IMG/VR virus record: IMGVR_UViG_3300020472_000017
Span: 248-64,247 of that record
Length of the DNA stretch: 64,000 nt
DNA from: a virus
Direction: 5' to 3' (one strand)
Shown: positions 51,341 through 63,556 of the stretch, in pieces
Layout: each line of letters begins with the position of its first letter
Numbering within the stretch: the first letter of the stretch is position 1
Notes under the pieces: generated by a model
The model's database searches: none
What the model was told of the DNA's origin: nothing
The model's input: the letters and a program-made list of their open reading frames with translations, nothing else
Position numbers and translations under genes: made by a program

Positions 51341-51369
51341 ATTATATCACGATTTACACACAATGTCAA
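51341..51369 (-). promoter_or_regulatory. Perfect sigma70 promoter TTGACA-N17-TATAAT
   Basis: Minus strand reads TTGACA ttgtgtgtaaatcgtga TATAAT. Confidence 0.9.
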
Positions 51370-51496
51370 AAAGGGGTCGGGCGGCGCGATACCCTGAGAA
51401 ATATTTTTAGAAAAATTATATTTCTTTTATCGAACTCGCTCATGCAAGACTTTATAGCTTAGCTTTGATAGGGATCCTAAGCTAGGGGGCGGGGGC

Positions 51497-51516
51497 AAAC
51501 CGCCCAAGGGGGGCGG
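51497..51516 (-). terminator. Possible intrinsic terminator
   Basis: CCGCCC-ccctt-GGGCGG-TTTG, 15 nt after the stop at 51532; short U tract. Confidence 0.45.
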
Positions 51517-51531
51517 CACTGCCTCGACTGC

Positions 51532-51684
51532 CTAGAGGTGCGGCGGCGCAATCTCAGCACGCCATCCCATTTTGGCAAAGTCCTCTAAGATTTGCAACGC
51601 TGACTCATAATTTGAAAAACTGATCAGTCTTGCGTTTTGTTGCCGATCCGTCCAATAACGGACCTTCGTGTTGATTTTTGCCAT
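51532..51684 (-). CDS. Small early hypothetical protein, 50 aa
   Basis: MAKINTKVRYWTDRQQ...; start shortened relative to the ORF track. Confidence 0.6.
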   Translation of the reverse strand: MAKINTKVRYWTDRQQNARLISFSNYESALQILEDFAKMGWRAEIAPPHL

Positions 51685-51919: not shown

Positions 51920-52102
51920 TCAGTGACGATCGCTTATATTCCATGTGCCCGAAGGGTGAGGGCGAAATGTGAAATTGTCCTCTGCGAGTTTGGTCATTGC
52001 TGCCATCACTGCTTGGTCCTTGGTCGCCGCCTCATTCATTAGGACTGATCCGTTGAACATGGGGCGAAGGTCGGAGTTGAACATTTGGGAATTCGTTTTC
52101 AT
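51920..52102 (-). CDS. Small early hypothetical protein, 60 aa
   Basis: MKTNSQMFNSDLRPMF...; -10 box TATTAT at 52109-52114 just upstream. Confidence 0.6.
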   Translation of the reverse strand: MKTNSQMFNSDLRPMFNGSVLMNEAATKDQAVMAAMTKLAEDNFTFRPHPSGTWNISDRH

Positions 52103-52145
52103 GATTCTATAATACACGATTTTGAATAGCATGGGTGCTCTATTA

Positions 52146-52166
52146 GGACACTTTGTCAGGTGGCAC
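52146..52166. promoter_or_regulatory. Dyad motif copy 1: GGACACTT-tgtc-AGGTGGCAC
   Basis: About 30 nt upstream of the minus-strand TATTAT. Confidence 0.7.
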
Positions 52167-52190
52167 ACGAGAGAGCGTTCTAATAAAAAA

Positions 52191-52224
52191 TCCAGCCGCC
52201 CGTGGACAGTTGGATGAGTGGCAC
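52191..52224 (+). repeat. Extended dyad copy 2: TCCAGCCGCCC + GTGGACAGTT-ggat-GAGTGGCAC
   Basis: 52191-52212 matches 54059-54080 at 21 of 22 nt. Confidence 0.75.
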
Positions 52225-52334
52225 AAGGGTTTGTGTTACTTAGTGGGGACACAGTTTGTGTTAATTAGAGACCAAAGAGTTCAAGAAAGAAAATGATAAA
52301 TTCCAATTGAACTCTGTTGATCTTTGGTTTACAC

Positions 52335-52649
52335 TCAAGCGAAGACGATTTCCTCGACGTTTGTGTAACTGTAGAGGACGCAATCCTGTCGGAATTGTTG
52401 TTTGTATACGTCCCCGATTGTCTTGAGGTTGTTGACAATTTGTGTAGAATGTGTAGTACGTTCGTCTACAGTTACCTCGATGATTTTAGTCTTTTCAAGT
52501 GTACCTTTGTAGACGCCGATTGCGTCACTAATAGTACAAAACTGTAATCGAGTTAGTAACTCATTCTGAACAAATTGCAACCACATCTGATTATTAACCG
52601 TTCCTGAGTTAGGTATATTTAACCCAAGAACAATGCGGTGAGTTTGCAT
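52335..52649 (-). CDS. Putative SAM lyase (SAMase) / DUF3574-like protein, 104 aa
   Basis: LGLNIP...W..F...TISDAIGVYKGTLEKTK...YKQQFRQDCVL; resembles DUF3574 and the G-x-Y...E and QDCVL motifs of T3 SAMase as recalled; TATAAT at 52672-52677. Confidence 0.6.
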   Translation of the reverse strand: MQTHRIVLGLNIPNSGTVNNQMWLQFVQNELLTRLQFCTISDAIGVYKGTLEKTKIIEVTVDERTTHSTQIVNNLKTIGDVYKQQFRQDCVLYSYTNVEEIVFA

Positions 52650-52707
52650 AAAGAATTCAGTTGACCTTTTCATTATAGACGATTTTGCCACGGCAACCCA
52701 GAGCTCT

Positions 52708-52728
52708 GTGCCACTTAAATAAGTGGAC
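52708..52728. promoter_or_regulatory. Dyad motif copy 3: GTGCCACTT-aaat-AAGTGGAC
   Basis: Between divergent genes; 30 nt from the minus-strand TATAAT. Confidence 0.75.
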
Positions 52729-52810
52729 TTTTTTGTTAACTCGTGTAACGTTTGGGATTTTGTCAACCCCATCTCGTGTAAAATTAGGGAGTACAAACGC
52801 CAGCATCCAA

Positions 52811-53125
52811 ATGCCAGCATCCGCTAAGTCTGCTCCATCCGTCTCAACTGCTAAAGCAAAACCAGCACGCAAGACCAGAGCACGCAAAGCACCTGCCACC
52901 CCTCGCACTCGCAAGGCAGCGGCAAACCCCACACCTCAACCAGTCGCCCAAGTGGCACCCGTTGAGACCCTTCAGCAAAAGGAGTTGAAGGCGTGGCAAG
53001 ATCTCTTCACCCTCAGAGGAATTGAGATCGTGGTCCTTCCTTTGATTTTCCTCGAAGCATGGGCGGTTCAAATCCTCAACAACGCAGGACTTGAAGTCAG
53101 TGTTCCAGGAATCAAAACCAGTTGA
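52811..53125 (+). CDS. Lys/Ala/Arg/Pro-rich protein with hydrophobic C-terminus, 104 aa
   Basis: MPASAKSAPSVSTAKAKPARKTRARKAPATPRTRKAAA...; TAAAAT at 52779-52784. Confidence 0.65.
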   Translation: MPASAKSAPSVSTAKAKPARKTRARKAPATPRTRKAAANPTPQPVAQVAPVETLQQKELKAWQDLFTLRGIEIVVLPLIFLEAWAVQILNNAGLEVSVPGIKTS

Positions 53126-53136
53126 CAAACTGGCAC
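53115..53136. promoter_or_regulatory. Dyad motif copy 4: AAACCAGTT-gaca-AACTGGCAC
   Basis: 31 nt upstream of the plus-strand TATATT (53168-53173). Confidence 0.7.
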
Positions 53137-53142
53137 ACTCAG

Positions 53143-53163
53143 ACCCCCACTAGGGGGTTTTTT
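53143..53163 (+). terminator. Intrinsic terminator embedded in the next promoter
   Basis: ACCCCC-acta-GGGGGT followed by a T run. Confidence 0.65.
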
Positions 53164-53264
53164 CATGTATATTAAAAGAGTGGGGGGAATTGAGGCAATA
53201 TCCTTCGGGAACACTGACCCAACGCCCCCACATTTCACTTCACTTAACAACGCTAATTTCATTC

Positions 53265-53510
53265 ATGATTTTACGTCAACTCGGTTCAAATATGACCGAA
53301 CTAAGTTTCAACAATGGAGACTCAATCTTCTTTAGTTATGAAACTCCAGTCGCAGGATTTACTCCAAAAGTAGGACATTTCAAGACTGAAACTTACTACT
53401 CCAGGACTACATCGAAGCACATCAATCAGTACATGAAACATGCACCTAATGTTCGCACAGTTGATGATAGTTTCATCGTCTCACTTTGTCACCCTGAAGG
53501 TATCAAATAA
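53265..53510 (+). CDS. Conserved phage hypothetical protein, 81 aa
   Basis: GSNMTEL...FFSYETPVAG...YSRTTSKHIN motif; start shortened relative to the ORF track. Confidence 0.7.
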   Translation: MILRQLGSNMTELSFNNGDSIFFSYETPVAGFTPKVGHFKTETYYSRTTSKHINQYMKHAPNVRTVDDSFIVSLCHPEGIK

Positions 53511-53677
53511 TGAGCGAAACTATACGGACAATTCGTGTTACTGAAGACGAGGAATCTGTCCTCGTTGAGATGATACAATTCTTCAATGATATGGGGTGGA
53601 TAAATGAATCCACCCAAACAGATTATGACTCACTATGTGATACTATCTGTGAACCAAGTCCTTTCGATTATTCTTAA
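53510..53677 (+). CDS. Small acidic protein, 55 aa (not in ORF track)
   Basis: MSETIRTIRVTEDEESVLVEMIQFFNDMGW...; TAATG coupling. Confidence 0.65.
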   Translation: MSETIRTIRVTEDEESVLVEMIQFFNDMGWINESTQTDYDSLCDTICEPSPFDYS

Positions 53678-53678
53678 C

Positions 53679-53837
53679 ATGTCCTGCCTACAAAATGAAG
53701 CAATTCTTGAGAACATCTTCGACGAAATCCTTGAGAAATGTTATCAACGTAACCTGCATTTACTCTTTGGTGAACAAGAATTAGAAGAACTTGCAGCAAC
53801 ATTGACTAAAGAACGTTGGGAGAGATTGTATGACTAA
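53679..53837 (+). CDS. Small acidic protein, 52 aa
   Basis: MSCLQNEAILENIFDEI...; 1 nt after the upstream stop. Confidence 0.65.
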   Translation: MSCLQNEAILENIFDEILEKCYQRNLHLLFGEQELEELAATLTKERWERLYD

Positions 53838-54003
53838 ATCACAATTTCGCTTCACAATCGACTTTGAGTTAAATGATAAAGAGCATGAATTCAATTCTAG
53901 ACACTTTGCCGAAGAGATTGAAAGCTATTTGTTAAACTATTGTGGACTAGATAGCAAGGTGTTAAATTACACTAACTCTTGCCCAATCTACAAATACGAT
54001 TAA
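53830..54003 (+). CDS. Small hypothetical protein, 57 aa (not in ORF track)
   Basis: MTKSQFRFTIDFELNDKEH...; 8-nt overlap with the upstream gene. Confidence 0.55.
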   Translation: MTKSQFRFTIDFELNDKEHEFNSRHFAEEIESYLLNYCGLDSKVLNYTNSCPIYKYD

Positions 54004-54008
54004 CAAAT

Positions 54009-54038
54009 AGAGTGGACGGTTCCCCAACTGTCCACTCT
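54009..54038. repeat. Dyad copy 5: AGAGTGGACGGTT-cccc-AACTGTCCACTCT
   Basis: 13-bp arms with one mismatch, right after the stop at 54003. Confidence 0.8.
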
Positions 54039-54058
54039 CGGCCTGAATCCTTGAAAAT

Positions 54059-54093
54059 TCCAGCCGCCCATGGACAGTTGAGAGACTGTCCAT
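54059..54093 (+). promoter_or_regulatory. Extended dyad copy 6: TCCAGCCGCCC + ATGGACAGTT-gaga-GACTGTCCAT
   Basis: About 29 nt upstream of TATTAT (54122-54127). Confidence 0.75.
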
Positions 54094-54133
54094 TTTTTAT
54101 TGAATGGGGTCTGAAATCGTGTATTATAAGGGT

Positions 54134-54313
54134 ATGAAATTCAAAGACCAATTCTCACTCGTTCTTAATTCTCAAGAACACGCCATGCTCGAAGAGATGG
54201 CATCCTTCTGCGCTCAATTTGATTTCACAGAGCACAACGATCCTGAAATCTTCGAGATGCTCTGGGACAAAATCCTAGACGCAGATCACAAAGTCGTTGA
54301 GGCAAATTCATGA
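54134..54313 (+). CDS. Small acidic protein, 59 aa
   Basis: MKFKDQFSLVLNSQEH...; follows the -10 box. Confidence 0.65.
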   Translation: MKFKDQFSLVLNSQEHAMLEEMASFCAQFDFTEHNDPEIFEMLWDKILDADHKVVEANS

Positions 54314-54477
54314 GCACGATCAGCGAATTCTATTCAGGTCTGCTAGACAAGGGTTACTCAGAGCGAGAAATTCGCGAGAGTGCTCAGAAACATTCCCAAC
54401 GGGTCGCGCCAGATTGGTTCAACGGGACGTACTCAGAATATTTGGATCACATGCACGAATTTCTAAATGGCATGTAA
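54310..54477 (+). CDS. Small hypothetical protein, 55 aa (not in ORF track)
   Basis: MSTISEFYSGLLDKGYSEREIRESAQKHSQRVAPDWFNGTYSEYLDHMHEFLNGM; ATGA overlap. Confidence 0.7.
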   Translation: MSTISEFYSGLLDKGYSEREIRESAQKHSQRVAPDWFNGTYSEYLDHMHEFLNGM

Positions 54478-54622
54478 TCAATTTTCTGATCTGCAGGAAT
54501 ACACATTCCTGCACGACACCCTAGGCAAATTCACCGTGATGGAAGACAACTTGCCCGACGCTCTCAAAAAAGTGCCACGATCTGCAATCCTAATTGCAGT
54601 CAACGGCGACCCTCGCTTCTGA
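54467..54622 (+). CDS. Small hypothetical protein, 51 aa (not in ORF track)
   Basis: MACNQFSDLQEYTFLHDTLGKF...; ends inside a terminator hairpin. Confidence 0.5.
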   Translation: MACNQFSDLQEYTFLHDTLGKFTVMEDNLPDALKKVPRSAILIAVNGDPRF

Positions 54623-54631
54623 GGGTTTTTT
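54609..54631 (+). terminator. Intrinsic terminator
   Basis: ACCCTC-gcttct-GAGGGT followed by a T run at the end of the plus-strand operon. Confidence 0.7.
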
Positions 54632-54641
54632 ACTGAAAAAT

Positions 54642-54676
54642 TCCAGCTGACCGTGGACGATCTCCAAACCGTCCAT
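54642..54676 (+). repeat. Extended dyad copy 7: TCCAGCTGACC + GTGGACGATC-tcca-AACCGTCCAT
   Basis: Same geometry as copies 2 and 6; sits where the plus and minus operons converge. Confidence 0.65.
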
Positions 54677-54692
54677 AGTACACAAATACTCT

Positions 54693-54887
54693 TTACTTTT
54701 CCTCTGCAGTTGTAGGGACATAATAACACAAACCCTCTGCAATATATCTCTGAGATATTAACAACATCTCAGGGATATTTTGTATTAGGTCAGTGTCAAT
54801 TAAGAACTGCACTAGTTCTACACTCTCATCGGGATCTAGTCCCCCTAATTTATACTTAGCGAGAAGGAATCGTATGCGTTCAGTCAT
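54693..54887 (-). CDS. Hypothetical protein, 64 aa
   Basis: ORF track; coupled to the upstream gene. Confidence 0.65.
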   Translation of the reverse strand: MTERIRFLLAKYKLGGLDPDESVELVQFLIDTDLIQNIPEMLLISQRYIAEGLCYYVPTTAEEK

Positions 54888-55050
54888 ACTCCTCCTCTAA
54901 TAGGTCCTTATCTATTCTCATCCTACCTCTGTTACTTATCTCATCTAAGTAACCACTACTAGCCAAATCTTCATATTCTTGCAATTCCTTCTTTTTCTGT
55001 GAAAATGAACCTTTTTTGTTGGTTCCTCTGTAATCCCAGGTTTTGGCCAT
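54880..55050 (-). CDS. Small charged protein, 56 aa (not in ORF track)
   Basis: MAKTWDYRGTNKKGSFSQKKKELQEYEDL...; fills the gap exactly. Confidence 0.6.
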   Translation of the reverse strand: MAKTWDYRGTNKKGSFSQKKKELQEYEDLASSGYLDEISNRGRMRIDKDLLEEEYD

Positions 55051-55052
55051 TT

Positions 55053-55310
55053 TTAGGTGTTTTGCGTGATTTGCTTGAGATCGCCACTTTTCAGTGAATC
55101 ATTATAAAATCTTCCAAGTGACACAGAAGTTGGGTCTTTCACGAAACCGTCAAGAGTTGACAGTAATTTCGCATTTGCAGGTTTCCAAGCATACTCGTAG
55201 GTTTTCTCATTTCCTGAGAAGTTTATGAAAACCTTGGATCCTTGCACGACTATTTTATCTAGTGCAGAACTCAACTCGCCGATCTCGAAGGTGTGCTTTT
55301 TCGTAGCCAT
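55053..55310 (-). CDS. KTSC-like domain protein, 85 aa
   Basis: SSALDKI...VFINF..N.KTYEY...SVSLGRFYNDSLK resembles the KTSC pattern SS.I......L.V.F..G..Y.Y...S.GRYFN. Confidence 0.5.
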   Translation of the reverse strand: MATKKHTFEIGELSSALDKIVVQGSKVFINFSGNEKTYEYAWKPANAKLLSTLDGFVKDPTSVSLGRFYNDSLKSGDLKQITQNT

Positions 55311-55333
55311 GGTCTTTGCTTTGTTACCTACTA

Positions 55334-55362
55334 ATTATAATCGATCTGGTCTTCAAAGTCAA
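55334..55362 (-). promoter_or_regulatory. sigma70 promoter TTGACT-N17-TATAAT
   Basis: Read directly from sequence; upstream of 55053..55310. Confidence 0.85.
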
Positions 55363-55370
55363 GCTCTGAG

Positions 55371-55390
55371 GTCACTTTGAGAACTGGCAC
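55371..55390. promoter_or_regulatory. Dyad motif copy 8: GTCACTT-tgag-AACTGGCAC
   Basis: Between two back-to-back promoters. Confidence 0.75.
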
Positions 55391-55398
55391 AAGGTCGC

Positions 55399-55428
55399 TT
55401 GACTTTCGGTCCACTGCGGGCTTAGACT
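55399..55428 (+). promoter_or_regulatory. sigma70-like promoter TTGACT-N18-TAGACT
   Basis: Points towards the 3' end of the minus-strand oxygenase gene; no plus-strand CDS evident. Confidence 0.5.
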
Positions 55429-55518
55429 GCAAAGGGTCTCCAAGCAATCACGGAGTAGTACGCACAAACTAGTTTTTATTAACATTTCTTAAAAGGGTAG
55501 TATCCTAGAGTATCTTAC

Positions 55519-56103
55519 TCACATTCTACCTCTTCCCTCCCTCCATATATCAAAAATCAGTGAATATCTAACGTTTTCACCCTGATTTTCTACCTTATGC
55601 AGCGCGGAAGACTTAAAAACTAGGAGCTTACCCTCCGCAAGGGGTCTAGACTCATTCTCTACAGATAGTATAGAGATTGTGTCACTCAATGGTAGGTTAC
55701 AACGATATCTTACTGTTGTCTTACCTGGATCAGGATCAAAATGCCATCCTAACTCACTCTTACCTGCTAATCTTACTATCCCTACGTATACTGTCTCTCC
55801 TAACCAATACATTGTCTTCATTAACCTAGGCAATACCTTTCTATTGTTAGGGTATGGCATATGATTAACAAATAATGGTGCTACACTCCACTTAGCATTT
55901 GTATCTGCTATAGGTGCACTCATGTATGCATTACAATCTATCTCATGTCCCTTTCCTTCCTCTGCTAGGGTCTTACGTTGATAGTCTGTAAAGTCTTTAA
56001 ATTCTAGTTGATTGTAGTATTGGTCAAACTCTTCCTTTAATGTAGGATATACTAATTGTATTCCTTTAAGGCGATTGTTTATTTGTTCAGGCTTGAGAAA
56101 CAT
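55519..56103 (-). CDS. Aspartyl/asparaginyl beta-hydroxylase-family 2OG-Fe(II) oxygenase, 194 aa
   Basis: LGWHFD (HxD)...RCNLPL...EGKLLVF...LHKVEN...RYSLIFD facial-triad motif. Confidence 0.8.
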   Translation of the reverse strand: MFLKPEQINNRLKGIQLVYPTLKEEFDQYYNQLEFKDFTDYQRKTLAEEGKGHEIDCNAYMSAPIADTNAKWSVAPLFVNHMPYPNNRKVLPRLMKTMYWLGETVYVGIVRLAGKSELGWHFDPDPGKTTVRYRCNLPLSDTISILSVENESRPLAEGKLLVFKSSALHKVENQGENVRYSLIFDIWREGRGRM

Positions 56104-56246
56104 TCTTCTGGCGTTCTCGTATCATCATTCTCTGCCCATATAGTACACACATTGTATACTTGGTTCTGGGCTTTGGATAAGTGAGAATGCAGTGCTGTTA
56201 GACACTGCCTCCTCCTCTCCAATATATGTTCGTTTAATTCTTTCAT
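56079..56246 (-). CDS. Small hypothetical protein, 55 aa (not in ORF track)
   Basis: MKELNEHILERRRQCLTALHSH...; ATGA-type overlap with the upstream gene. Confidence 0.6.
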   Translation of the reverse strand: MKELNEHILERRRQCLTALHSHLSKAQNQVYNVCTIWAENDDTRTPEECFSSLNK

Positions 56247-56470
56247 CTACTACGGGCTTTCACTCCTTTACCTAGTACATTCTTAGATGTTGTACCATAT
56301 TGTGAATAGAGTTTGGCATCGTTAATAGCCTGATCTTCGCTCCTGAATGGACCATAAGATTGAGGTACAGTTGAGTAATGCCAATATACGCCTTTACGCT
56401 TCTGATTCAGTTCAACTAATATATCCTGGTTAAGGACATTGAACTGGACTTTCTTAGGGGACTTAGCCAT
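56243..56470 (-). CDS. Hypothetical protein, 75 aa
   Basis: ORF track; YGPFRSEDQA motif; coupled. Confidence 0.6.
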   Translation of the reverse strand: MAKSPKKVQFNVLNQDILVELNQKRKGVYWHYSTVPQSYGPFRSEDQAINDAKLYSQYGTTSKNVLGKGVKARSR

Positions 56471-56675
56471 TTGATTGGTCCTTAGGACGAGGTTGGATTT
56501 CTGCCCAATAGTCAGGATAGACTAGGACATTAACTTGAGCATAGCCATGGAGTGTTCCCTCCTTTGGCCATTGATGCGTACACACAGTAACGTATGCACC
56601 ATCGACAAAACTGATGAAGCCTTCATGCCCATCATAGTATACAGGATCACCGACACTAAATGGACACTTCATCAC
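56463..56675 (-). CDS. Hypothetical SH3-like beta protein, 70 aa
   Basis: FSVGDPVYYDGHEGFISFV pattern. Confidence 0.6.
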   Translation of the reverse strand: MMKCPFSVGDPVYYDGHEGFISFVDGAYVTVCTHQWPKEGTLHGYAQVNVLVYPDYWAEIQPRPKDQSNG

Positions 56676-56860
56676 CCATTACCAAAACCATTACCACTAT
56701 TTAACTCTCGTCTCTGTTGATACATTTCACGTAATGATCGTTTCATGTATCGTATCTCCTCATCCTTAAACAGGAATGGATCAGCATCACTCGCTTTTAA
56801 TGTGCGCTTGAGCTGTGAGATACGTTTGGACAGAATACTGGAGTCAAGAATAGTGGACAT
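56672..56860 (-). CDS. Hypothetical helical protein, 62 aa
   Basis: ORF track; coupled. Confidence 0.65.
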   Translation of the reverse strand: MSTILDSSILSKRISQLKRTLKASDADPFLFKDEEIRYMKRSLREMYQQRRELNSGNGFGNG

Positions 56861-56883
56861 GGCTTCAATGTGCGGTTATATGT

Positions 56884-56988
56884 TTATAGGGCTGTCTCTA
56901 CCTCTTCTGCAATATGATCTAGAACTTCAAGGATCTCAGTACCGTTGTTGGTCTGGTCAAGAAGGAATACTGCAAATTCGTTTGACAT
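56884..56988 (-). CDS. Acidic micro-protein, 34 aa (not in ORF track)
   Basis: MSNEFAVFLLDQTNNGTEILEVLDHIAEEVETAL. Confidence 0.55.
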   Translation of the reverse strand: MSNEFAVFLLDQTNNGTEILEVLDHIAEEVETAL

Positions 56989-57104
56989 GATGAAAATAAA
57001 ACAGGGTTTACAAAAAATGGACGGAGATACATATTCTCCTTACTGGAGACCCATTGTATCATCGGGGGGACTTATTGACGTTGCCCTTGCCGCCCATACA
57101 CATA

Positions 57105-57401
57105 TTATAACTTGTCTAGGTCGCCTCCGACACGTTCAGTGGACTGTTTGTTGGCTGTCACACTGTCTTTCTGCATCTGTCTCAAATTGTTAAATGTTTT
57201 GACAGACCAGTCGTATGAGGTCTTGGCTAATGGTACAATGACATCCTTGGTAAATTCATCCCATTCAAACAGGTGAATTTGCCAACGTACCTTGGCATCG
57301 TCAATATATTCACCAAGACTGATGTTGGTCTCGTCTGGACGATCAGTTGGTGGCTTGTAAATGCTACCCTTGATCTTTCGCTGGTGTTCTTCTGTACTCA
57401 T
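57105..57401 (-). CDS. Hypothetical protein, 98 aa
   Basis: ORF track; promoter TTGCAA-N16-TATAAT at 57431-57458. Confidence 0.65.
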   Translation of the reverse strand: MSTEEHQRKIKGSIYKPPTDRPDETNISLGEYIDDAKVRWQIHLFEWDEFTKDVIVPLAKTSYDWSVKTFNNLRQMQKDSVTANKQSTERVGGDLDKL

Positions 57402-57431
57402 GGATCTATAAGGTCGTTACCAATATGTATA

Positions 57432-58013
57432 TTATAGCACACCTAGTTTCTTTTGCAACACTGGACCTATCCTATTGCGTAAGAATGTGAAATATTCCTC
57501 ACATGTGAACTGTGCATCCACCACGTTGAGGATATCGTTCACTCCATACACATTAACACCCTTGTTATTGTACTTCTTAAGGATGCTCTTGGGTATGTCT
57601 GCCTTGACTGGACAGAAGTATCCACTCTCGACTGCAACAGCTAGTGTATCAGATATATCATTGATCTTTTGGTTAGATGCCTTGATCTTCTCACTATCGA
57701 AATCTAGGTTGCATTTACATTCAAGGTAATAGGTCAACTCCTCAACCTTGAACAAATGATCTAACTGTCGTTCATGTGATCCTACAATCAGCATGTTATC
57801 CTCCTCTATGAGGTTCTCAGCTGTGTTGCTATCACTGATGACAGTATTCCAGAACTCCTCAATCTTATTACCAAAGGAGATCCATACAGATGGATGTGAT
57901 CGCACTTCTCCTAATCCACATGCCTCTAGGACGAATGAACTGGTGGTCTTAGGCTCGATACTCTCAATTAATGGGAGTAGGTGCTCTTCGAGGTAGGATG
58001 GTCGTAATTTCAT
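57432..58013 (-). CDS. PD-(D/E)xK restriction-endonuclease-like protein, 193 aa
   Basis: RQLDHLFKVEELTYYLECKCN gives D-x11-E-x-K, preceded by SFGNKIEEFW; directly downstream of the Dam-family methylase. Confidence 0.6.
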   Translation of the reverse strand: MKLRPSYLEEHLLPLIESIEPKTTSSFVLEACGLGEVRSHPSVWISFGNKIEEFWNTVISDSNTAENLIEEDNMLIVGSHERQLDHLFKVEELTYYLECKCNLDFDSEKIKASNQKINDISDTLAVAVESGYFCPVKADIPKSILKKYNNKGVNVYGVNDILNVVDAQFTCEEYFTFLRNRIGPVLQKKLGVL

Positions 58014-58025
58014 GCTCCTATTATA

Positions 58026-58871
58026 TCAGGTACATACTTCTAACAAGCCAGGATTGGCCAGTGCATGAAGTGTCATATCATTCTCGTAATTGGTCACGTA
58101 CATGTGCGATACTGATGCATTGGCATGGTTCTTACCCTTGCCCCATCGTTGTGAGTATCCAAAGTCTTTGTATATGATATGATAGTCCTTGAGCTCACGC
58201 TTATAGAAATCATCTTCAGTATGTACGAAGAGCCATGGTGCAGTTGTTTCCTTCATGGCAGCAACCAAACGTTCATGTAGATCCTCACCACCGTCACCAG
58301 TAGTATATCCTGCTCGTGCACGATAAGGTGGATCAATGAATATCCAGTCATTATTACTGGCAGCAACAAATGCCTGGTAGAAATCACCTGATGTGATCTC
58401 AGCATTCTGTAAGAACTGCATGTGCTCCCAATTGAGATTACAAGAGAACTTCTTGTAGTGTCCAAAGGGAACATTAAACTGTCCCTTACTATTGTAACGT
58501 TCCATGCCACTAAAGCACAACTGTCTTACAATAATATAACTGACTGCCCATTTGTATGGGTCACGTTCATCACCATTGATATAATCACGAGCTTCATAGT
58601 ATTTGTCGCTCAATGCGTCATGATCTAGGGTCTTACAGTGACATACCTCCGAAAAGACCTCTTGAAACTCTATTTTATCTTTAATTTGATTGTATGCGTT
58701 GATCAATCCATCGTTCACGTCATTTAAAATGCATGGTTTTTGCAGGTTAAATGACACAGCAGCACCACCACAGAAGGGTTCAACCACTTTGTCGAACTCA
58801 TCAGGTAGTAACTGCTTGATAATGGGTAGCTCTTTGGTCTTGCCACCTTGATACTTAACAAATGGCTTCAT
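58026..58871 (-). CDS. dam: DNA adenine methyltransferase, D12/Dam family, 281 aa
   Basis: KYQGGK, VEPFCGGAAV (motif I), ILNDVN, FIDPPY (motif IV); start set at MKPFVKY. Confidence 0.85.
   Translation of the reverse strand: MKPFVKYQGGKTKELPIIKQLLPDEFDKVVEPFCGGAAVSFNLQKPCILNDVNDGLINAYNQIKDKIEFQEVFSEVCHCKTLDHDALSDKYYEARDYINGDERDPYKWAVSYIIVRQLCFSGMERYNSKGQFNVPFGHYKKFSCNLNWEHMQFLQNAEITSGDFYQAFVAASNNDWIFIDPPYRARAGYTTGDGGEDLHERLVAAMKETTAPWLFVHTEDDFYKRELKDYHIIYKDFGYSQRWGKGKNHANASVSHMYVTNYENDMTLHALANPGLLEVCT
58055..58076. promoter_or_regulatory. Dyad motif copy 9: TGGCCAGTG-catg-AAGTGTCAT
   Basis: Inside the 3' end of dam; 29 nt from TATAAT (58020-58025) in front of the nuclease. Confidence 0.6.
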
Positions 58872-59044
58872 GTATTCAAAACATAGATCAATCGAATGAC
58901 CATACATGTGAAGAACACATAGTATGTCCACATGATCCACATACCCACCTTATTATGGAGTGAACCACGTTTGTATGGATGAACAACACCAGGTGCACTG
59001 TCCCATCCATCTTGCATGTATTCTTTAGGATCTATTCTTGCCAC
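58868..59044 (-). CDS. Small membrane protein, 58 aa (not in ORF track)
   Basis: GTG start; ARIDPKEYMQDGW...HNKVGMWIMWTYYVFFTCMVIRLIYVLNT; ATGA overlap with dam. Confidence 0.65.
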   Translation of the reverse strand: MARIDPKEYMQDGWDSAPGVVHPYKRGSLHNKVGMWIMWTYYVFFTCMVIRLIYVLNT

Positions 59045-59249
59045 GATGATTAGTAATGTAATTACGTGCAGACTGTTCGTTCCTGCACTCTTTGATTATA
59101 GCACCATCATGGATAATACACAACTTCGTGTTACTACCCATTACAGGTACAGCATAGTATCCATCGTTAGTGGCAAATCCTTCAGTACTATTCTTGTAGA
59201 ACCTGGCTATTGCCTTTAGTTCCTTCTCCGTTTCGTTCACAATGCTCAT
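59025..59249 (-). CDS. Hypothetical protein, 74 aa
   Basis: MSIVNETEKELK...GYYAVP...IIHDG; start uncertain. Confidence 0.6.
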   Translation of the reverse strand: MSIVNETEKELKAIARFYKNSTEGFATNDGYYAVPVMGSNTKLCIIHDGAIIKECRNEQSARNYITNHRGKNRS

Positions 59250-59478
59250 CCCAAGGGTGTTTGTAGTTTCTATCTGCAAGCTTATGAATAGTCAGGTGTA
59301 CATCGTCACCCCAACTGTTCATCCTCCGAATACCTCCGAAGGACATTTCTAAATCAGAATCGGTCCATCCTAGTTCATCTACCATTTCTTTTCTAATGTA
59401 GATGTGAAGTTCACCTTCGATAAACTTATAATCGAAGTACTTCTGGATGTCAGGATGGATACCAGGATTAACTGTCAT
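59188..59478 (-). CDS. Hypothetical protein, 96 aa
   Basis: ORF track. Confidence 0.55.
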   Translation of the reverse strand: MTVNPGIHPDIQKYFDYKFIEGELHIYIRKEMVDELGWTDSDLEMSFGGIRRMNSWGDDVHLTIHKLADRNYKHPWDEHCERNGEGTKGNSQVLQE

Positions 59479-59507
59479 AGTGTTTCAACTATTGTTCGCC
59501 GTCATAT

Positions 59508-59843
59508 TTAGAAGGGGCAAGAGGACATCTCTTCGTGGGTTAGTGTATCATCACCACCTGCTCCGAGGAAATCACCCTTACGCTTGAAACCCCACTTGTC
59601 ATAGATGACAGGGAAATTCTCTGCTTTGTAACGTAATGCTTCAAAACTCTCCTGAGATAGTTCCCAAGCTAAGATCTTACGTACATTAGCAGCATTCCGA
59701 CACTGACGTGACTTAAAGCGATCTAGTTTCCAACGTCGCTCAGTCTCTGCAAATGTAGGTGGATATTGTTTGTATAATGCCTGTGCATTCACAGTATTAT
59801 ACTTAGCATTATCATAATGCTGGTAATAAAACTTGCGAGGCAT
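59508..59843 (-). CDS. Hypothetical basic protein, 111 aa
   Basis: ORF track; preceded by a promoter and a structured leader. Confidence 0.6.
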   Translation of the reverse strand: MPRKFYYQHYDNAKYNTVNAQALYKQYPPTFAETERRWKLDRFKSRQCRNAANVRKILAWELSQESFEALRYKAENFPVIYDKWGFKRKGDFLGAGGDDTLTHEEMSSCPF

Positions 59844-59934
59844 GGTGTCCTATCGAATGGATTGTATGGAAGAGGTTCGATTTAAAGACGATTAGTGAAC
59901 GTCACCCTTGCCTTCCATACATGTATTATACACC

Positions 59935-60447
59935 TTACTGATAGTAACCAGGCTCCCACTGTGCCTCTTTATCAACTGACACAAGGTTACCAGACACAAC
60001 AACCCTTTCATGTAAGCATGTATGTGGTGGCACATAGTGTGGTGCATCACCTCCGAACACATATAAATTGCCCACCTTAGGTCTTACAACCTGTAATGGT
60101 GGCATCCATGGGTGTTCAGGATCAGGAAATACTAATGGAGTACAATGTACACAGGTATCCAAATACCAGGCAAAACTATAATCAAAGCCAGGATGGCAAT
60201 GACATTGAGCAAAATCTCCTTGTCTATACGTACAGCCCCAGAGTTCTTTGACTTTGTGGTTTGGGTAGAGTGCATATAACTGTTGCAACAATTCTTCAAA
60301 CATAGGATGATCTTGGAGTTGCCACTCAGATACTGCTGCTTTAACAGAAGTACCCCAGTTCTGGGCATCACCAAGATCAACAATGTTATCTGCTATTTTA
60401 TGATGTGGCTTAACGTACCACTCCTCTAGTTTGAAGTTTCGTTGCAT
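59935..60447 (-). CDS. 2OG-Fe(II) oxygenase superfamily protein, 170 aa
   Basis: WGCTYRQGDFAQCHCH...SFAWYL...NLYVF...PHYVP...RVVVSGN pattern (HxH/D...H...R). Confidence 0.8.
   Translation of the reverse strand: MQRNFKLEEWYVKPHHKIADNIVDLGDAQNWGTSVKAAVSEWQLQDHPMFEELLQQLYALYPNHKVKELWGCTYRQGDFAQCHCHPGFDYSFAWYLDTCVHCTPLVFPDPEHPWMPPLQVVRPKVGNLYVFGGDAPHYVPPHTCLHERVVVSGNLVSVDKEAQWEPGYYQ
59961..59982. promoter_or_regulatory. Dyad motif copy 10: GTGCCTCTT-tatc-AACTGACAC
   Basis: Inside the oxygenase 3' end; 30 nt from TATAAT (59925-59930). Confidence 0.7.
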
Positions 60448-60905
60448 TTCTGGTACTCTCTATACTCTTTGTACAGTACTTTCTCTCTTGCATATGCTTC
60501 TATCTCCCATGGTTCATCCATGTAAGCAGTGTCCTTAGGTACAACATCACCCTTCCATTTGTTCTCAATGAATACCTTATCAGTATGACGATGAGCAAAT
60601 CTCTGAGTATGGTCACCACGTAGTCTCTGCTCAACATGAGTTAACTCATGGAATAATGTAGTAAGATACTGTTCTTTATTATCGAGACGGTTCTCCATCT
60701 CAATTTCAAAGTATCTAGGACGTGATAGTTGATCGATGGATAAACATGTACCATCATCCTCAGGCCACAACCTCCTGTCTATAATATGGAGATACGTGTT
60801 GAAGCGACTGAGTTTACGATGCTTGATGAACCAATCGATTGCAGTGCGGGTAATCCGTTTACGATTAGAGTACCCACCAAACGTGACATAACAAGACATG
60901 ACCAA
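60426..60905 (-). CDS. Zinc metallopeptidase-like protein (HExxH), 159 aa
   Basis: TLFHELTHVEQ...PWEIEAY zincin motif. Confidence 0.7.
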   Translation of the reverse strand: MVMSCYVTFGGYSNRKRITRTAIDWFIKHRKLSRFNTYLHIIDRRLWPEDDGTCLSIDQLSRPRYFEIEMENRLDNKEQYLTTLFHELTHVEQRLRGDHTQRFAHRHTDKVFIENKWKGDVVPKDTAYMDEPWEIEAYAREKVLYKEYREYQKCNETSN

Positions 60906-60973
60906 TGAAGAAAGTAAATGAACGAGGAAATAAAGACTAGCTTTTCGATGCCAGTCATGTTTTTAGCATTCAT
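60779..60973 (-). CDS. Small hydrophobic protein, 64 aa
   Basis: MNAKNMTGIEKLVFISSFIYFLHW...; 3' half overlaps the peptidase gene. Confidence 0.45.
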   Translation of the reverse strand: MNAKNMTGIEKLVFISSFIYFLHWSCLVMSRLVGTLIVNGLPALQSIGSSSIVNSVASTRISIL

Positions 60974-61146
60974 GCTGGTGAAGAAACCTCCCACTTATAC
61001 TTGGATGTTTCTCTCTTGCAATACATGCAGTATAAAGAACTCCATGCGAAGTGATACACTCTTGATGCTCCTTCACAATTAGGGCAGACTATCCATCTAC
61101 CATCCTTAGGTGCTCTGGTGTATCTGGTTACTTTAGGAAATCTCAT
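60970..61146 (-). CDS. Zinc-ribbon protein, 58 aa (not in ORF track)
   Basis: MRFPKVTRYTRAPKDGRWIVCPNC...VYHFAWSSLYCMYC; CxxC...CxxC; ATGA overlaps on both sides. Confidence 0.7.
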   Translation of the reverse strand: MRFPKVTRYTRAPKDGRWIVCPNCEGASRVYHFAWSSLYCMYCKRETSKYKWEVSSPA

Positions 61147-61376
61147 TCTTGAATCTGATCTAAACGTAACCCACGATAACCTGATGCTGGTGCATCAAGT
61201 TCGTCCAAAGCTCGACCTAGCTCTTTGGTAAGGTGCTTTTCAAGGTGTATGTCATCCACATTGTGTCTAACAGCAATACTGTTAGCTAAGGTTGGATCAG
61301 TAGACCACATTAGATCAATAATATATTTGATCTGTTGTGTGTCCAGTTCAACCATCGTTACTACGCTGTCCTCCAT
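61143..61376 (-). CDS. Hypothetical protein, ~77 aa
   Basis: Start moved downstream of TATAAT (61407-61412). Confidence 0.55.
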   Translation of the reverse strand: MEDSVVTMVELDTQQIKYIIDLMWSTDPTLANSIAVRHNVDDIHLEKHLTKELGRALDELDAPASGYRGLRLDQIQE

Positions 61377-61407
61377 TTCTGGTTGCTCTGTGATGATTAC
61401 TTCCATA

Positions 61408-62358
61408 TTATAAGGGCAATTGAGCAGGAATGGTGGAAATACGGTCAGTTTGTAAACTGGCATACTCCTTGTGCAATTCACACCCAAGGTATGATCTACT
61501 TAGTTTCTTGGCCACCATTGCAGTTGTGCCACTACCCATGAATGGATCTAATATTATATCACGCTCCTCCGAACCTGCCAATATGCAGGTCTCTATCAAA
61601 TCTGGTGGGTAGCAAGCGAAGTGTGCTCCTTTGTATGGTTTGTTCGTGACTGACCATACCGAACGTTTATTCTTCTTGGGATAAGACTTTGAGAGTCCCG
61701 AATGAGGAGATAGTCCAGTACCTTTATTGTGATATTTTCCATTAGTACGATCCCTGGTTCCCCAGTCTTTTGCTGGTTCTTTGATAGCTTCGTTATCATA
61801 ATAATACTTCTTGTTCTTACTTAAGAGGAAGATATACTCATGTGATTTAGTACATCTATCCTTCACACTCTCTGGCATAGGGTTAGGCTTATGCCATATT
61901 ATATCCTGCCTGAGATACCATCCATCAGCACGTAATGCAAATGCTAACATCCAAGGGATACCAATTAGATCCTTTTCTTTTAAACCTGGTAATATATTAC
62001 CACGACGAGGACATGCCTGAGGTAAATCTTGTGATGTATTACTAACTGTCTGCTGTACTAATGCTTGACCTTTACCTGGTCTATAGTTGTAATAACTATC
62101 ACCCATGTTCAACCATAGTGTACCATCTTCAGTTAATACATCACGTACCTTACTGAATACTTCCACCAAGTTATTAATATATTCTTCTGGTGTATCCTCC
62201 TTACCTATCTGTGCATCTTCACCACCATAATCACGGAGACCATAGTAAGGTGGAGATGTAACACACATTCGTGGTTGTTCTGCTATACCAACAGTAATCT
62301 CTGCACGTAAGGTACCAAGAGTTTCACGACAGTCACCAAATAGTACTGTATCTCTCAT
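61408..62358 (-). CDS. DNA methyltransferase, N4/N6 beta class (SPPY, probably N4-cytosine), 316 aa
   Basis: GDCRE...CVTSPPYYGLRDY...DIIWHKPN...LDPFMGSGTT; motif IV precedes motif I. Confidence 0.9.
   Translation of the reverse strand: MRDTVLFGDCRETLGTLRAEITVGIAEQPRMCVTSPPYYGLRDYGGEDAQIGKEDTPEEYINNLVEVFSKVRDVLTEDGTLWLNMGDSYYNYRPGKGQALVQQTVSNTSQDLPQACPRRGNILPGLKEKDLIGIPWMLAFALRADGWYLRQDIIWHKPNPMPESVKDRCTKSHEYIFLLSKNKKYYYDNEAIKEPAKDWGTRDRTNGKYHNKGTGLSPHSGLSKSYPKKNKRSVWSVTNKPYKGAHFACYPPDLIETCILAGSEERDIILDPFMGSGTTAMVAKKLSRSYLGCELHKEYASLQTDRISTIPAQLPL
61443..61463. promoter_or_regulatory. Dyad motif copy 11: GGTCAGTT-tgta-AACTGGCAT
   Basis: Inside the methylase 3' end; about 29-30 nt from the minus-strand TATAAT. 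Confidence 0.7.
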
Positions 62359-63116
62359 ACAAATCGCCTGAGTTGTTTAAGTATGTACTTATATGCTGTT
62401 ACTATATCACCTTCATCTTTACGAAATAGATCCTTATCAAATCGTTCTCTTGATCCTTTCTTCCACAATCTCATATTGTCTGGGCTGAGTTCGTCAGCAA
62501 GGAAGAGATCACCATGAGCATCGTAACCAAATTCAAGCTTAAAATCAACGAGATCAATACCACATAGAGTGAAGACAGTTTGAAGGACATTGTTTATTAC
62601 CAGTGTTTGTTCAATTAAGGGCTTAGTGTCAACCCCCATAAGCCTAACGCGATCAGGAGTGAGTAAAGGATCATTCTTACTATCATCTTTGAGGAAAAAT
62701 TCTACAATTGGCGGGTTGAATAGCGTGCCTTCCGATAATGTAGTAGTTTTAACCACACTACCAGCAGCTATATTCCTGCATATTACTTCCACTGGTAAGA
62801 TTGTCAACTTCTTACATAACATCCTAGTCAGTGAAGGTGCGTCAATGTAGTGTGACTTAATACCATTCTTAGCTAGCATCTCAAATAGAAGCGCAGATAT
62901 AAGACAACATGTTGCACCCTTGTCTTTTATGTAGTCCTCCTTTGCGCCATTTCCCGCAGTTACTCTATCATGAAACTCTATGAGTACCTTATCAGCCTCA
63001 CCTTCCAGATCATACACACTTTTTACCTTACCCTCCAATATTGGTGGGTGTGATACGATCATCCTGTGTAGTTTATCAGGATTGTTGTTTGGATTTGCTT
63101 TGATTTCAGATTTCAT
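62355..63116 (-). CDS. purC: SAICAR synthetase (auxiliary metabolic gene); start 63116 or 63062
   Basis: EGKVKSVY...FHDRVTAGNG...PVEVICRNIAAGS...LVDFKLEFG...LADELSPDNMRLW...DKDLFR. Confidence 0.95.
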   Translation of the reverse strand: MKSEIKANPNNNPDKLHRMIVSHPPILEGKVKSVYDLEGEADKVLIEFHDRVTAGNGAKEDYIKDKGATCCLISALLFEMLAKNGIKSHYIDAPSLTRMLCKKLTILPVEVICRNIAAGSVVKTTTLSEGTLFNPPIVEFFLKDDSKNDPLLTPDRVRLMGVDTKPLIEQTLVINNVLQTVFTLCGIDLVDFKLEFGYDAHGDLFLADELSPDNMRLWKKGSRERFDKDLFRKDEGDIVTAYKYILKQLRRFV

Positions 63117-63178
63117 TGTATTAGGAATGAAGGTGTTCCATAAACTTGAGGGCACCTGTTTGTAATGATAGAATATAC

Positions 63179-63556
63179 TCACGACTTTCTGCGCGGCACT
63201 TGTATTTCCCATGAACCACCATGCAGAGTTACCATCTCAAACTCCTTCATTGCCTTCTCTCTTCTGTTTAATTCCGCTTCACGTCCTGGTTCAGGTGAAA
63301 TAGAACCATAAGCAGGGCGTGGATCATCACCATCAGGATTATCAATACCAGAAGCATCACAATAATCCCAGATAGCTTGATCTACCTGAGAATAAATGCT
63401 ATCTAATGTCATCCCAGTGCGTAAGTGATGCGCTATCTCATCGACCTGTTGTTCTGTAAGACAGTGATCAGGATGAAGAGCGTCACAAACAGGGATTCTT
63501 GCTTCGATAAGCTCATTGATGTTAATTCTAATTTCATAGTCTCTGTATACTGGCAT
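63179..63556 (-). CDS. Hypothetical acidic protein, 125 aa
   Basis: ORF track; starts 21 nt after the tRNA. Confidence 0.65.
   Translation of the reverse strand: MPVYRDYEIRININELIEARIPVCDALHPDHCLTEQQVDEIAHHLRTGMTLDSIYSQVDQAIWDYCDASGIDNPDGDDPRPAYGSISPEPGREAELNRREKAMKEFEMVTLHGGSWEIQVPRRKS

Follow-up and report, generated by a model that had tools for sequence, protein, structure and literature searches.

A fragment of a T4-like cyanomyovirus carries a series of 22-bp boxes with two-fold symmetry, which are phased to -10 hexamers located 29 to 31 nt downstream. The fragment is the IMG/VR virus record IMGVR_UViG_3300020472_000017, and its assignment is based on DNA and protein comparison. It is a single contig of 77.6 kb (CheckV completeness about 43%). 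The analyzed window covers 64,000 nt of it (positions 248 to 64,247 of the record), and positions refer to the window unless another genome is named. On the basis of sequence comparison, the boxes can with good confidence be attributed to the early and early-middle promoter cassettes that are common to T4-like cyanophages (Kyanoviridae). This contig adds one more T4-like cyanophage with the usual early promoters of its family, and any real novelty is confined to the identity of the binding factor. As a marker of the first transcription units in one of the ocean's most abundant virus groups, the element is useful for annotating early genes in uncultured cyanophage contigs.

When the copies are written toward the adjacent gene, the consensus of the box is GTGNCASTT-N4-AASTGNCAC. 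A -10 hexamer (TATAAT, TATTAT, TATATT, CATAAT or TATACT) follows at a distance of 29, 30 or 31 nt. Nine phased boxes were found in the interval 52146-61463 (at 52145, 52708, 53115, 54071, 55369, 57140, 58055, 59961 and 61442). Eight of them had been listed in an earlier note on this DNA; all eight exist and have TATAAT, TATTAT or TATATT 29-31 nt past the proximal arm. The ninth, at 57140, is degenerate. Two further phased boxes are on the same contig beyond this interval, at positions equal to window 64059 and 76602. Three copies lack a phased -10 (52203; 52937, which is in an open reading frame (ORF); and 54013, a 13-bp hairpin).

The pattern given in the earlier note, with up to 3 mismatches, has 12 matches compared to 0.91 in shuffled sequence. 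The note had also proposed a motif search of the whole genome and of host genomes. A symmetric position weight matrix (PWM), built from the ten best sites and applied at >=14 bits, has 13 matches on this contig compared to 0.3 in shuffles, and five picocyanobacterial genomes contain 0-1 phage-type boxes each (<=2 mismatches). The exact core CASTT-N4-AASTG occurs in five copies on the contig, all of them between 52.7 and 64.1 kb. Of the contig positions, 3.9% have a -10-like hexamer at a distance of 29-31 nt, and all five exact-core sites have one (p = 9e-8 against this background). For the PWM matches, the proportion is 11 of 15 (p = 4e-13), a figure which is partly circular because the PWM was trained on the same sites.

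Several of these promoters had been reported to lack a good -35, and this is the case for most of them. A host-type sigma-70 -35 (TTGACA-like, 16-18 nt before the -10) is absent from most copies, and on this contig a TTGACT -35 occurs only at 55369 and at contig 64059. A generic -35/-10 scan of the region found 34 matches compared to 33.3 expected, which is no enrichment. If transcription starts 7 nt past the -10, an assumption supported by a conserved A-T at the expected start position, the box spans -64 to -43 and is centered at -53.5. The AAATCGT(G/C) stretch that had been reported just upstream of the -10 at 51347, 52115, 52678 and 54114 is present at all four places, and it also occurs at three Syn9 promoters. 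A AAATCGTG-TATT sub-motif is common to this contig and Syn9. Interpretation of AAATCGTG as a classical extended -10 was rejected, as its TG is not at -15/-14.

The same arrangement is found in other T4-like cyanophages. At >=14 bits, the PWM has 12 matches in P-HM2 (0.75 in shuffles) and 10 in Syn9 (1.15 in shuffles), with the -10 again 29-31 nt away. Among 30 aligned promoters from this contig, P-HM2 and Syn9, the gap is 29 nt in 7 cases, 30 nt in 16 and 31 nt in 7. Boxes were also counted in P-SSM2 (18; control 1), in the freshwater phage S-CRM01 (28; control 2) and in S-TIM5 (four, which are weak). No box was found by genome scan in the T7-like cyanophages P-SSP7 and Syn5. In IMG/VR, the stringent pattern CCAGTT-N4-AACTGGCAC-N29-31-TATAAT matched at least 120 contigs, while the same pattern with a gap of 39-41 nt matched none. 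A further 208 boxes, which had not been chosen by pattern, are present in 80 of the matched IMG/VR loci (710 kb). The distances from these boxes to -10 hexamers peak at 29, 30 and 31 nt (36, 113 and 38 hexamers, 187 in total) over an otherwise flat background. The dyad promoter has been kept at orthologous genes in six pairs: 52145/P-HM2 39760, 53115/P-HM2 37627, 55369/P-HM2 35691, 57140/P-HM2 34473, 61442/P-HM2 32985 and contig 64059/Syn9 47205.

The timing of expression can be derived from the RNA-seq expression clusters of P-HM2 (Thompson et al. 2016, PMC5082946, S2 Table). Early A genes peak by 0.5 h, and their transcripts drop fast afterwards (PMC5082946). All ten box promoters of P-HM2 precede genes from either the Early A or the Mid B cluster, which together comprise 69 of 242 genes (p ~1e-5). 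Five promoters are ahead of Early A genes (PHM2_060, PHM2_061 with two boxes, PHM2_068 and PHM2_135), and five are ahead of Mid B genes (PHM2_044, PHM2_048, PHM2_053, PHM2_148 and PHM2_198). On this contig, P-HM2 orthology assigns the 51.9-54 kb island, with its orthologues at 51.9-53.7 kb and including the probable SAM (S-adenosylmethionine) lyase gene, to Early A, and the 55-62 kb genes to the Middle (B) and (C) clusters, mostly Mid B. The set had been called an early regulon. This label is right in essence but too narrow. Judged by orthology, the regulon is early and early-middle, not strictly early. Short contigs from one marine oligo-dT metatranscriptome match parts of 52.8-60.0 kb, but provide no evidence on transcription start sites because neither starts nor strand are visible in such contigs.

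We take the cassettes very probably to be the early-gene element of Doron and colleagues (ISME J 10:1437, 2016), a comparison that covers their abstract. That study reportedly found a novel regulatory element which controls the early genes of Syn9 and P-TIM40. Host-like promoters are said to drive the middle genes, and the elements are said to be abundant in T4-like cyanophages. The phages belong to one family, and the box is found in Syn9 itself, at identical spacing. Here, too, the element is tied to the earliest genes (via the P-HM2 orthologues), is unlike the host-like -35/-10 and is abundant in genomes and metagenomes. A difference is that, both here and in P-HM2, the box is also found ahead of genes from the first middle cluster. 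A full-text search of the literature collection covered here found no paper describing the cyanophage motif. We know of no protein that has been identified as binding the box.

The properties of the two arms fit a protein binding site. Among 205 sites, the arms have 1262 identical positions, compared to a permutation mean of 1262.9 (p = 0.54); among 30 sites, they have 164, with 169 expected (permutation p = 0.59). Each arm fits the half-site consensus on its own, and the G/C position is independent between arms. In 129 sites that were not pattern-selected, the promoter-proximal arm is better conserved (7.38 compared to 6.40 of 8 positions, p = 3e-9). An A directly follows the proximal arm in 101 of these sites, and a TTG-type -35 is found in only 24 of the 129 (~19%; IMG/VR loci). 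Boxes that have a phased -10 on both sides, and hence divergent promoters, number 23. Arms which do not co-vary, a stronger proximal arm and the rarity of a -35 point to a two-fold-symmetric protein site that compensates for the missing -35. The earlier note had postulated a dimeric activator centered near -55. The symmetric site at about -53.5 and the lack of a -35 in most copies fit such an upstream dimeric activator, while activation itself is what we infer from this geometry. Most likely, a dimeric factor which is available from the moment of DNA entry would bind the box and would recruit the host RNA polymerase, probably through the C-terminal domain of its alpha subunit, to a promoter that has only a -10. 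This factor could be a host protein or a protein delivered by the virion.

The individual copies, their predicted targets and associated features are as follows.

52145..52166, minus strand: dyad box reading GTGCCACCT-gaca-AAGTGTCCT; -10 TATTAT at 52109-52114, gap 30 nt; target is a 60-aa ORF (51920-52102, minus strand) with its ATG 7 nt past the -10, possibly leaderless.
52203..52224, no strand assigned: dyad-like copy without a phased -10; the conserved AAAATCCAGCCGCCC is before it and a U-run after it on the minus strand; weak fold (z = -0.2).
52708..52729, minus strand: dyad box; -10 TATAAT at 52672-52677, gap 30 nt, with AAATCGTC upstream of the -10; target is 52335-52649 (minus strand), probably the SAM lyase gene.
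52937..52958, no strand assigned: dyad-like sequence in the plus strand ORF 52685-53125, without a phased -10; probably non-functional.
53115..53136, plus strand: dyad box overlapping the stop codon of ORF 52685-53125; -10 TATATT at 53168-53173, gap 31 nt; target is the operon 53190-54003 (plus strand), the first gene of which is the orthologue of PHM2_060 (Early A; dyad promoter at P-HM2 37627).
53141-53160, plus strand: intrinsic terminator between the 53115 box and its -10.
54013..54034, plus strand: dyad-like hairpin with a 13-bp stem, just 3' of the stop codon of 53830-54003; it lacks both a U-run and a phased -10.
54071..54092, plus strand: dyad box; -10 TATTAT at 54122-54127, gap 29 nt, with AAATCGTG upstream of the -10; target is 54134-54622 (plus strand), ATG at 54134, 7 nt past the -10.
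55369..55390, minus strand: dyad box with a full promoter (TTGACT, 17 nt, TATAAT at 55334-55339); gap between box and -10 29 nt; target is 55053-55310 with the genes downstream (minus strand), orthologue of PHM2_053 (Mid B; dyad at P-HM2 35691).
57140..57161, minus strand: degenerate dyad (13 bits); -10 TATAAT at 57104-57109, gap 30 nt; target is 56919-57062 and 56672-56860 (minus strand), orthologue of PHM2_048 (Mid B; dyad at P-HM2 34473).
58055..58076, minus strand: dyad box in the 3' end of the D12 methylase gene 58026-58940; -10 TATAAT at 58020-58025, gap 29 nt; target is the 193-aa ORF 57432-58013 (minus strand), ATG 7 nt past the -10.
59961..59982, minus strand: dyad box in the 3' end of the 2OG-Fe(II) (2-oxoglutarate and iron-dependent) oxygenase gene 59935-60447; -10 TATAAT at 59925-59930, gap 30 nt; target is 59508-59843 (minus strand), with a leader of ~75 nt.
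61442..61463, minus strand: dyad box in the 3' end of the N6/N4 DNA methylase gene 61408-62358; -10 TATAAT at 61407-61412, gap 29 nt; target is small ORFs and 60426-60905 (minus strand).
51341..51369, minus strand: consensus host-type promoter without a dyad (TTGACA-17 nt-TATAAT, 12/12 matches), with AAATCGTG upstream; it heads the operon leading leftward from 51310.

Several of the targets can be characterized further. ORF 51920-52102 is the orthologue of PHM2_068 (Early A), which has its own dyad promoter. ORF 52335-52649 is the orthologue of PHM2_066 (Early A) and is assigned by Pfam to DUF3574 (8.7e-8) and S-AdoMet_lyase (3.5e-4), so that the SAM lyase among the genes proposed to be controlled is probable. 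The 'nuclease' proposed alongside it, 57432-58013, has no support from Pfam, in which this 193-aa ORF has no match. The three boxes that had been reported inside coding 3' ends are indeed there, in the genes for the D12 methylase (PF02086 at 3e-41), the 2OG-Fe(II) oxygenase and the N6/N4 methylase. The last of these, 61442, has its counterpart at the equivalent position of the P-HM2 dam gene (P-HM2 32985), ahead of PHM2_044 (Mid B). At three genes, the ATG is exactly 7 nt past the last base of the -10: 52102 (TATTAT-agaatc-ATG), 54134 (TATTAT-aagggt-ATG) and 58013 (TATAAT-aggagc-ATG). If transcription starts at the usual distance from the -10, their mRNAs would be leaderless. Two other box promoters are followed by a shared leader of ~40 nt (TATGGnnGGCAAGGGnnACGT..., minus strand, 57062-57103 and 59880-59924). 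These are its only two copies on the contig, and none was found in the 80 IMG/VR loci, P-HM2 or Syn9.

The copies are not all alike. Copy 54071 doubles as an intrinsic terminator with a U-run for the operon 53190-54003 (-14.2 kcal/mol, z = -3.05). The copies at 52203 and 54013 belong to hairpin or terminator modules and are not phased promoters; the 54013 hairpin folds with -19.9 kcal/mol (z = -5.3), while the 52203 fold is weak. Copies 52203 and 54071 and a related hairpin at 54654 have a conserved AAAATTCCAGCCGCCC-like stretch upstream. A AAAAWTCCAGCYGMCC(R)TGGAC stretch is ahead of three TGGAC-type hairpins (52185-52210, 54054-54080 and 54636-54665). A strong double hairpin is found downstream of the leftward operon at 54628-54688 (minus strand; -19.5 kcal/mol, z = -3.4). 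The AAAAWTCCAGCYGMCC(R)TGGAC double hairpin may be a bidirectional terminator module.

An alternative reading takes the palindromes as nucleic-acid hairpins altogether. They would then be terminators or RNA-stability elements of the upstream gene, with a main role in termination and recombination, similar to the promoter-early stem-loop (PeSL) cassettes documented in other T4-like phages (PMC2839356, PMC4122927). The resemblance to a terminator, good for copy 54071 and weaker for 52708 and 53115, weighs against a purely promoter-related function. A terminator-like stem-loop directly upstream of an early promoter, as in PeSL cassettes, is seen at these three copies but not at the others. Boxes also occur at cassette junctions, as illustrated by an insertion between the PHM2_047 and PHM2_048 orthologues (see below). 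However, a pairing function predicts arm co-variation, of which none is seen, and this disfavors a hairpin role. Most copies have no U-run, and several boxes are within ORFs, where a terminator would have nothing useful to cut short. What is conserved is the distance to the downstream -10 and not to the upstream stop codon, and the bidirectional use also fits a protein site. We consider a predominant hairpin function very improbable. An only slightly less improbable explanation accepts a protein site but regards it as a repressor operator that switches early transcription off. The Early A transcripts of P-HM2 fall quickly after 0.5 h, and a shared operator would allow a coordinated shut-off. 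A full -35/-10 is present at 55369, contig 64059 and Syn9 44775 and 162054, so that an activator would be needless there. However, ~6-7 bp lie between the -35 position and the upstream box, which leaves the core promoter elements free of overlap, and ~80% of the sites lack a -35. In addition, the phasing, which is tight to 1 bp, and the better-conserved proximal arm fit a contact to RNA polymerase.

As to the identity of the binding factor, two candidates have to be weighed. The first is the host regulator PlmA. The upstream element CGRE1 of marine picocyanobacteria is a palindrome of 21-22 nt which starts 55-57 nt upstream of the yfr2 transcription starts (Lambrecht et al. 2018, PMC6191309). 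It is bound by the GntR-type protein PMM1637, a PlmA homologue, and it raises promoter activity in an E. coli reporter (PMC6191309). The 9-bp half-sites of the phage box and of the host CGRE1 are the same (GTG[A/C]CAGTT and its complement), which is why PlmA is considered. Like the phage box, CGRE1 is two-fold-symmetric and upstream of the -10, and its effect on transcription is positive. The order of the half-sites differs, being AACTGNCAC-2/3 nt-GTGNCAGTT in the host CGRE1 and GTGNCAGTT-4 nt-AACTGNCAC in the phage box. Also unlike the phage box, CGRE1 is centered ~15 bp further upstream, and its sites are few in the hosts. That PlmA (PMM1637) binds the phage box is a tentative proposal from half-site identity, and PlmA is a candidate only. 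Slightly more doubtful is the extended version, in which T4-like cyanophages would capture PlmA, a universal GntR-type regulator of the host, via everted CGRE1 half-sites to switch on their first genes, with half-sites that are 1.5 helical turns closer to the promoter. If this were true, early infection would be tied to host light, nitrogen and redox signaling via PII-PipX-PlmA. The half-site match to the PlmA site allows a cheap and direct experiment with existing reagents.

Several points weigh against PlmA. The phage box is an everted CGRE1: the half-sites of CGRE1 have AAC...GTT on the outside, while those of the phage box are in the reverse order, and no rigid dimer can recognize the two arrangements alike. 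At yfr5, which has a single half-site, PMM1637 was without effect in the published assay (PMC6191309). The near-absence of phage-type boxes from the five picocyanobacterial genomes counts on the same side, and CGRE1-type sites are not enriched in the phage genomes scanned. Finally, the restriction of the box to Kyanoviridae fits a phage-supplied factor equally well, which makes a phage-delivered factor about as likely as PlmA. According to this second possibility, which is also doubtful when taken by itself, the box is read by a Kyanoviridae core protein that is packed in the virion and injected along with the DNA, or made within minutes; it would activate these promoters, and no host regulator would be needed. 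T4 (Alt) and N4 (virion RNA polymerase) set precedents for injected transcription factors. Throughout the T4-like cyanophages, the freshwater phage S-CRM01 among them, the box is present, but it is missing from T7-like ones of the same hosts, and the host genomes are almost devoid of boxes in the phage arrangement. However, neither this contig nor P-HM2 or Syn9 has a detectable GntR-type winged helix, and another candidate did not emerge; a Pfam scan of the ten small ORFs of 51.1-54.0 kb found no DNA-binding family. This agrees with the earlier note, which had stated that the binder is not identifiable from the phage DNA. Prochlorococcus MIT 9302 has exactly one GntR domain. With Early A expression peaking by 0.5 h, the first transcripts cannot be due to a freshly synthesized protein. 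That the phage box and host CGRE1 have exactly identical half-sites would have to be a coincidence or mimicry.

In Prochlorococcus MIT 9302, AACTGGCAC-ATA-TGACAGTT precedes the -10 of a Yfr2 gene (Rfam Cyano-1) by 46 nt, and a perfect AACTGTCAC-AT-GTGACAGTT is ahead of another locus that starts with GTGTGAG. Single TGTGACAGTT half-sites are ahead of two other Yfr2 genes. A perfect CGRE1-type palindrome at L113:970-1060 (1365773) is followed after ~50 nt by a -10 and a GTGTGAGTGAG start. This locus has no Rfam Yfr2 call, and it may be an unannotated small RNA controlled by PlmA. Next to the plmA gene of MIT 9302, only single half-sites occur, at chance frequency (4 seen, ~4.5 expected), which agrees with the published lack of a PMM1637 effect on its own promoter (PMC6191309). 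A backwards-box control (CACNGTSAA-N4-TTSACNGTG, <=2 mismatches) has 8 matches in Synechococcus RCC307 and 5 in CUG2176, and none in three Prochlorococcus genomes. The genomes of RCC307 and CUG2176 are GC-rich, and we take their control matches as an effect of composition; they could also represent a motif that belongs to these hosts.

The late promoters controlled by P2 Ogr and P4 Delta have a TGT-N12-ACA dyad near -55, lack a -35 and depend on a small dimeric activator. This activator is phage-encoded and probably contacts the alpha subunit of RNA polymerase. By analogy, the P2 Ogr-type late promoters are the nearest mechanistic counterpart of the cyanophage units, with which they share the upstream dyad near -55, the -10 and the poor -35. 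They differ in their unrelated sequence, in serving late genes and in having a known, phage-encoded activator. The PeSL cassettes have been described in T4-like phages that infect enterobacteria or vibrios (Arbiol 2010, PMC2839356; Comeau 2014, PMC4122927). Like the cyanophage units, they are short composites of a dyad and an early promoter that are repeated at the junctions of small accessory genes in hyperplastic regions. Their stem-loops, however, are terminators which vary in sequence and are judged by pairing, whereas in the cyanophage box the sequence of the arms is conserved rather than their pairing, and the distance from the -10 is constant to within 1 bp. As for PeSL elements elsewhere, boxes at gene-cassette junctions may also aid modular gene exchange.

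The contig is colinear with P-HM2, in inverted orientation, from 48.7 to 77.3 kb in window coordinates (P-HM2 17.9-44.4 kb; the window ends at 64.0 kb). Compared to P-HM2 34.3-34.6 kb, the region 57105-59025 has the D12 methylase gene, the 193-aa ORF and a 98-aa ORF inserted between the orthologues of PHM2_047 and PHM2_048. Box promoters bound this insertion, which fits cassette exchange at boxes. A G+C-rich region of ~180 bp without an ORF (51360-51545) separates two leftward operons. It contains GGGGC/GCCCC runs and has no Rfam match; an Rfam scan of 48-64 kb found only a tRNA-Asp. The contig also codes for CpeT and for a SAICAR synthetase. The gene for the latter has no tBLASTn match in P-HM2 or Syn9; it is located at 62355-63212, is of the purC type (PF01259 at 1.6e-68) and is a phage auxiliary metabolic gene.

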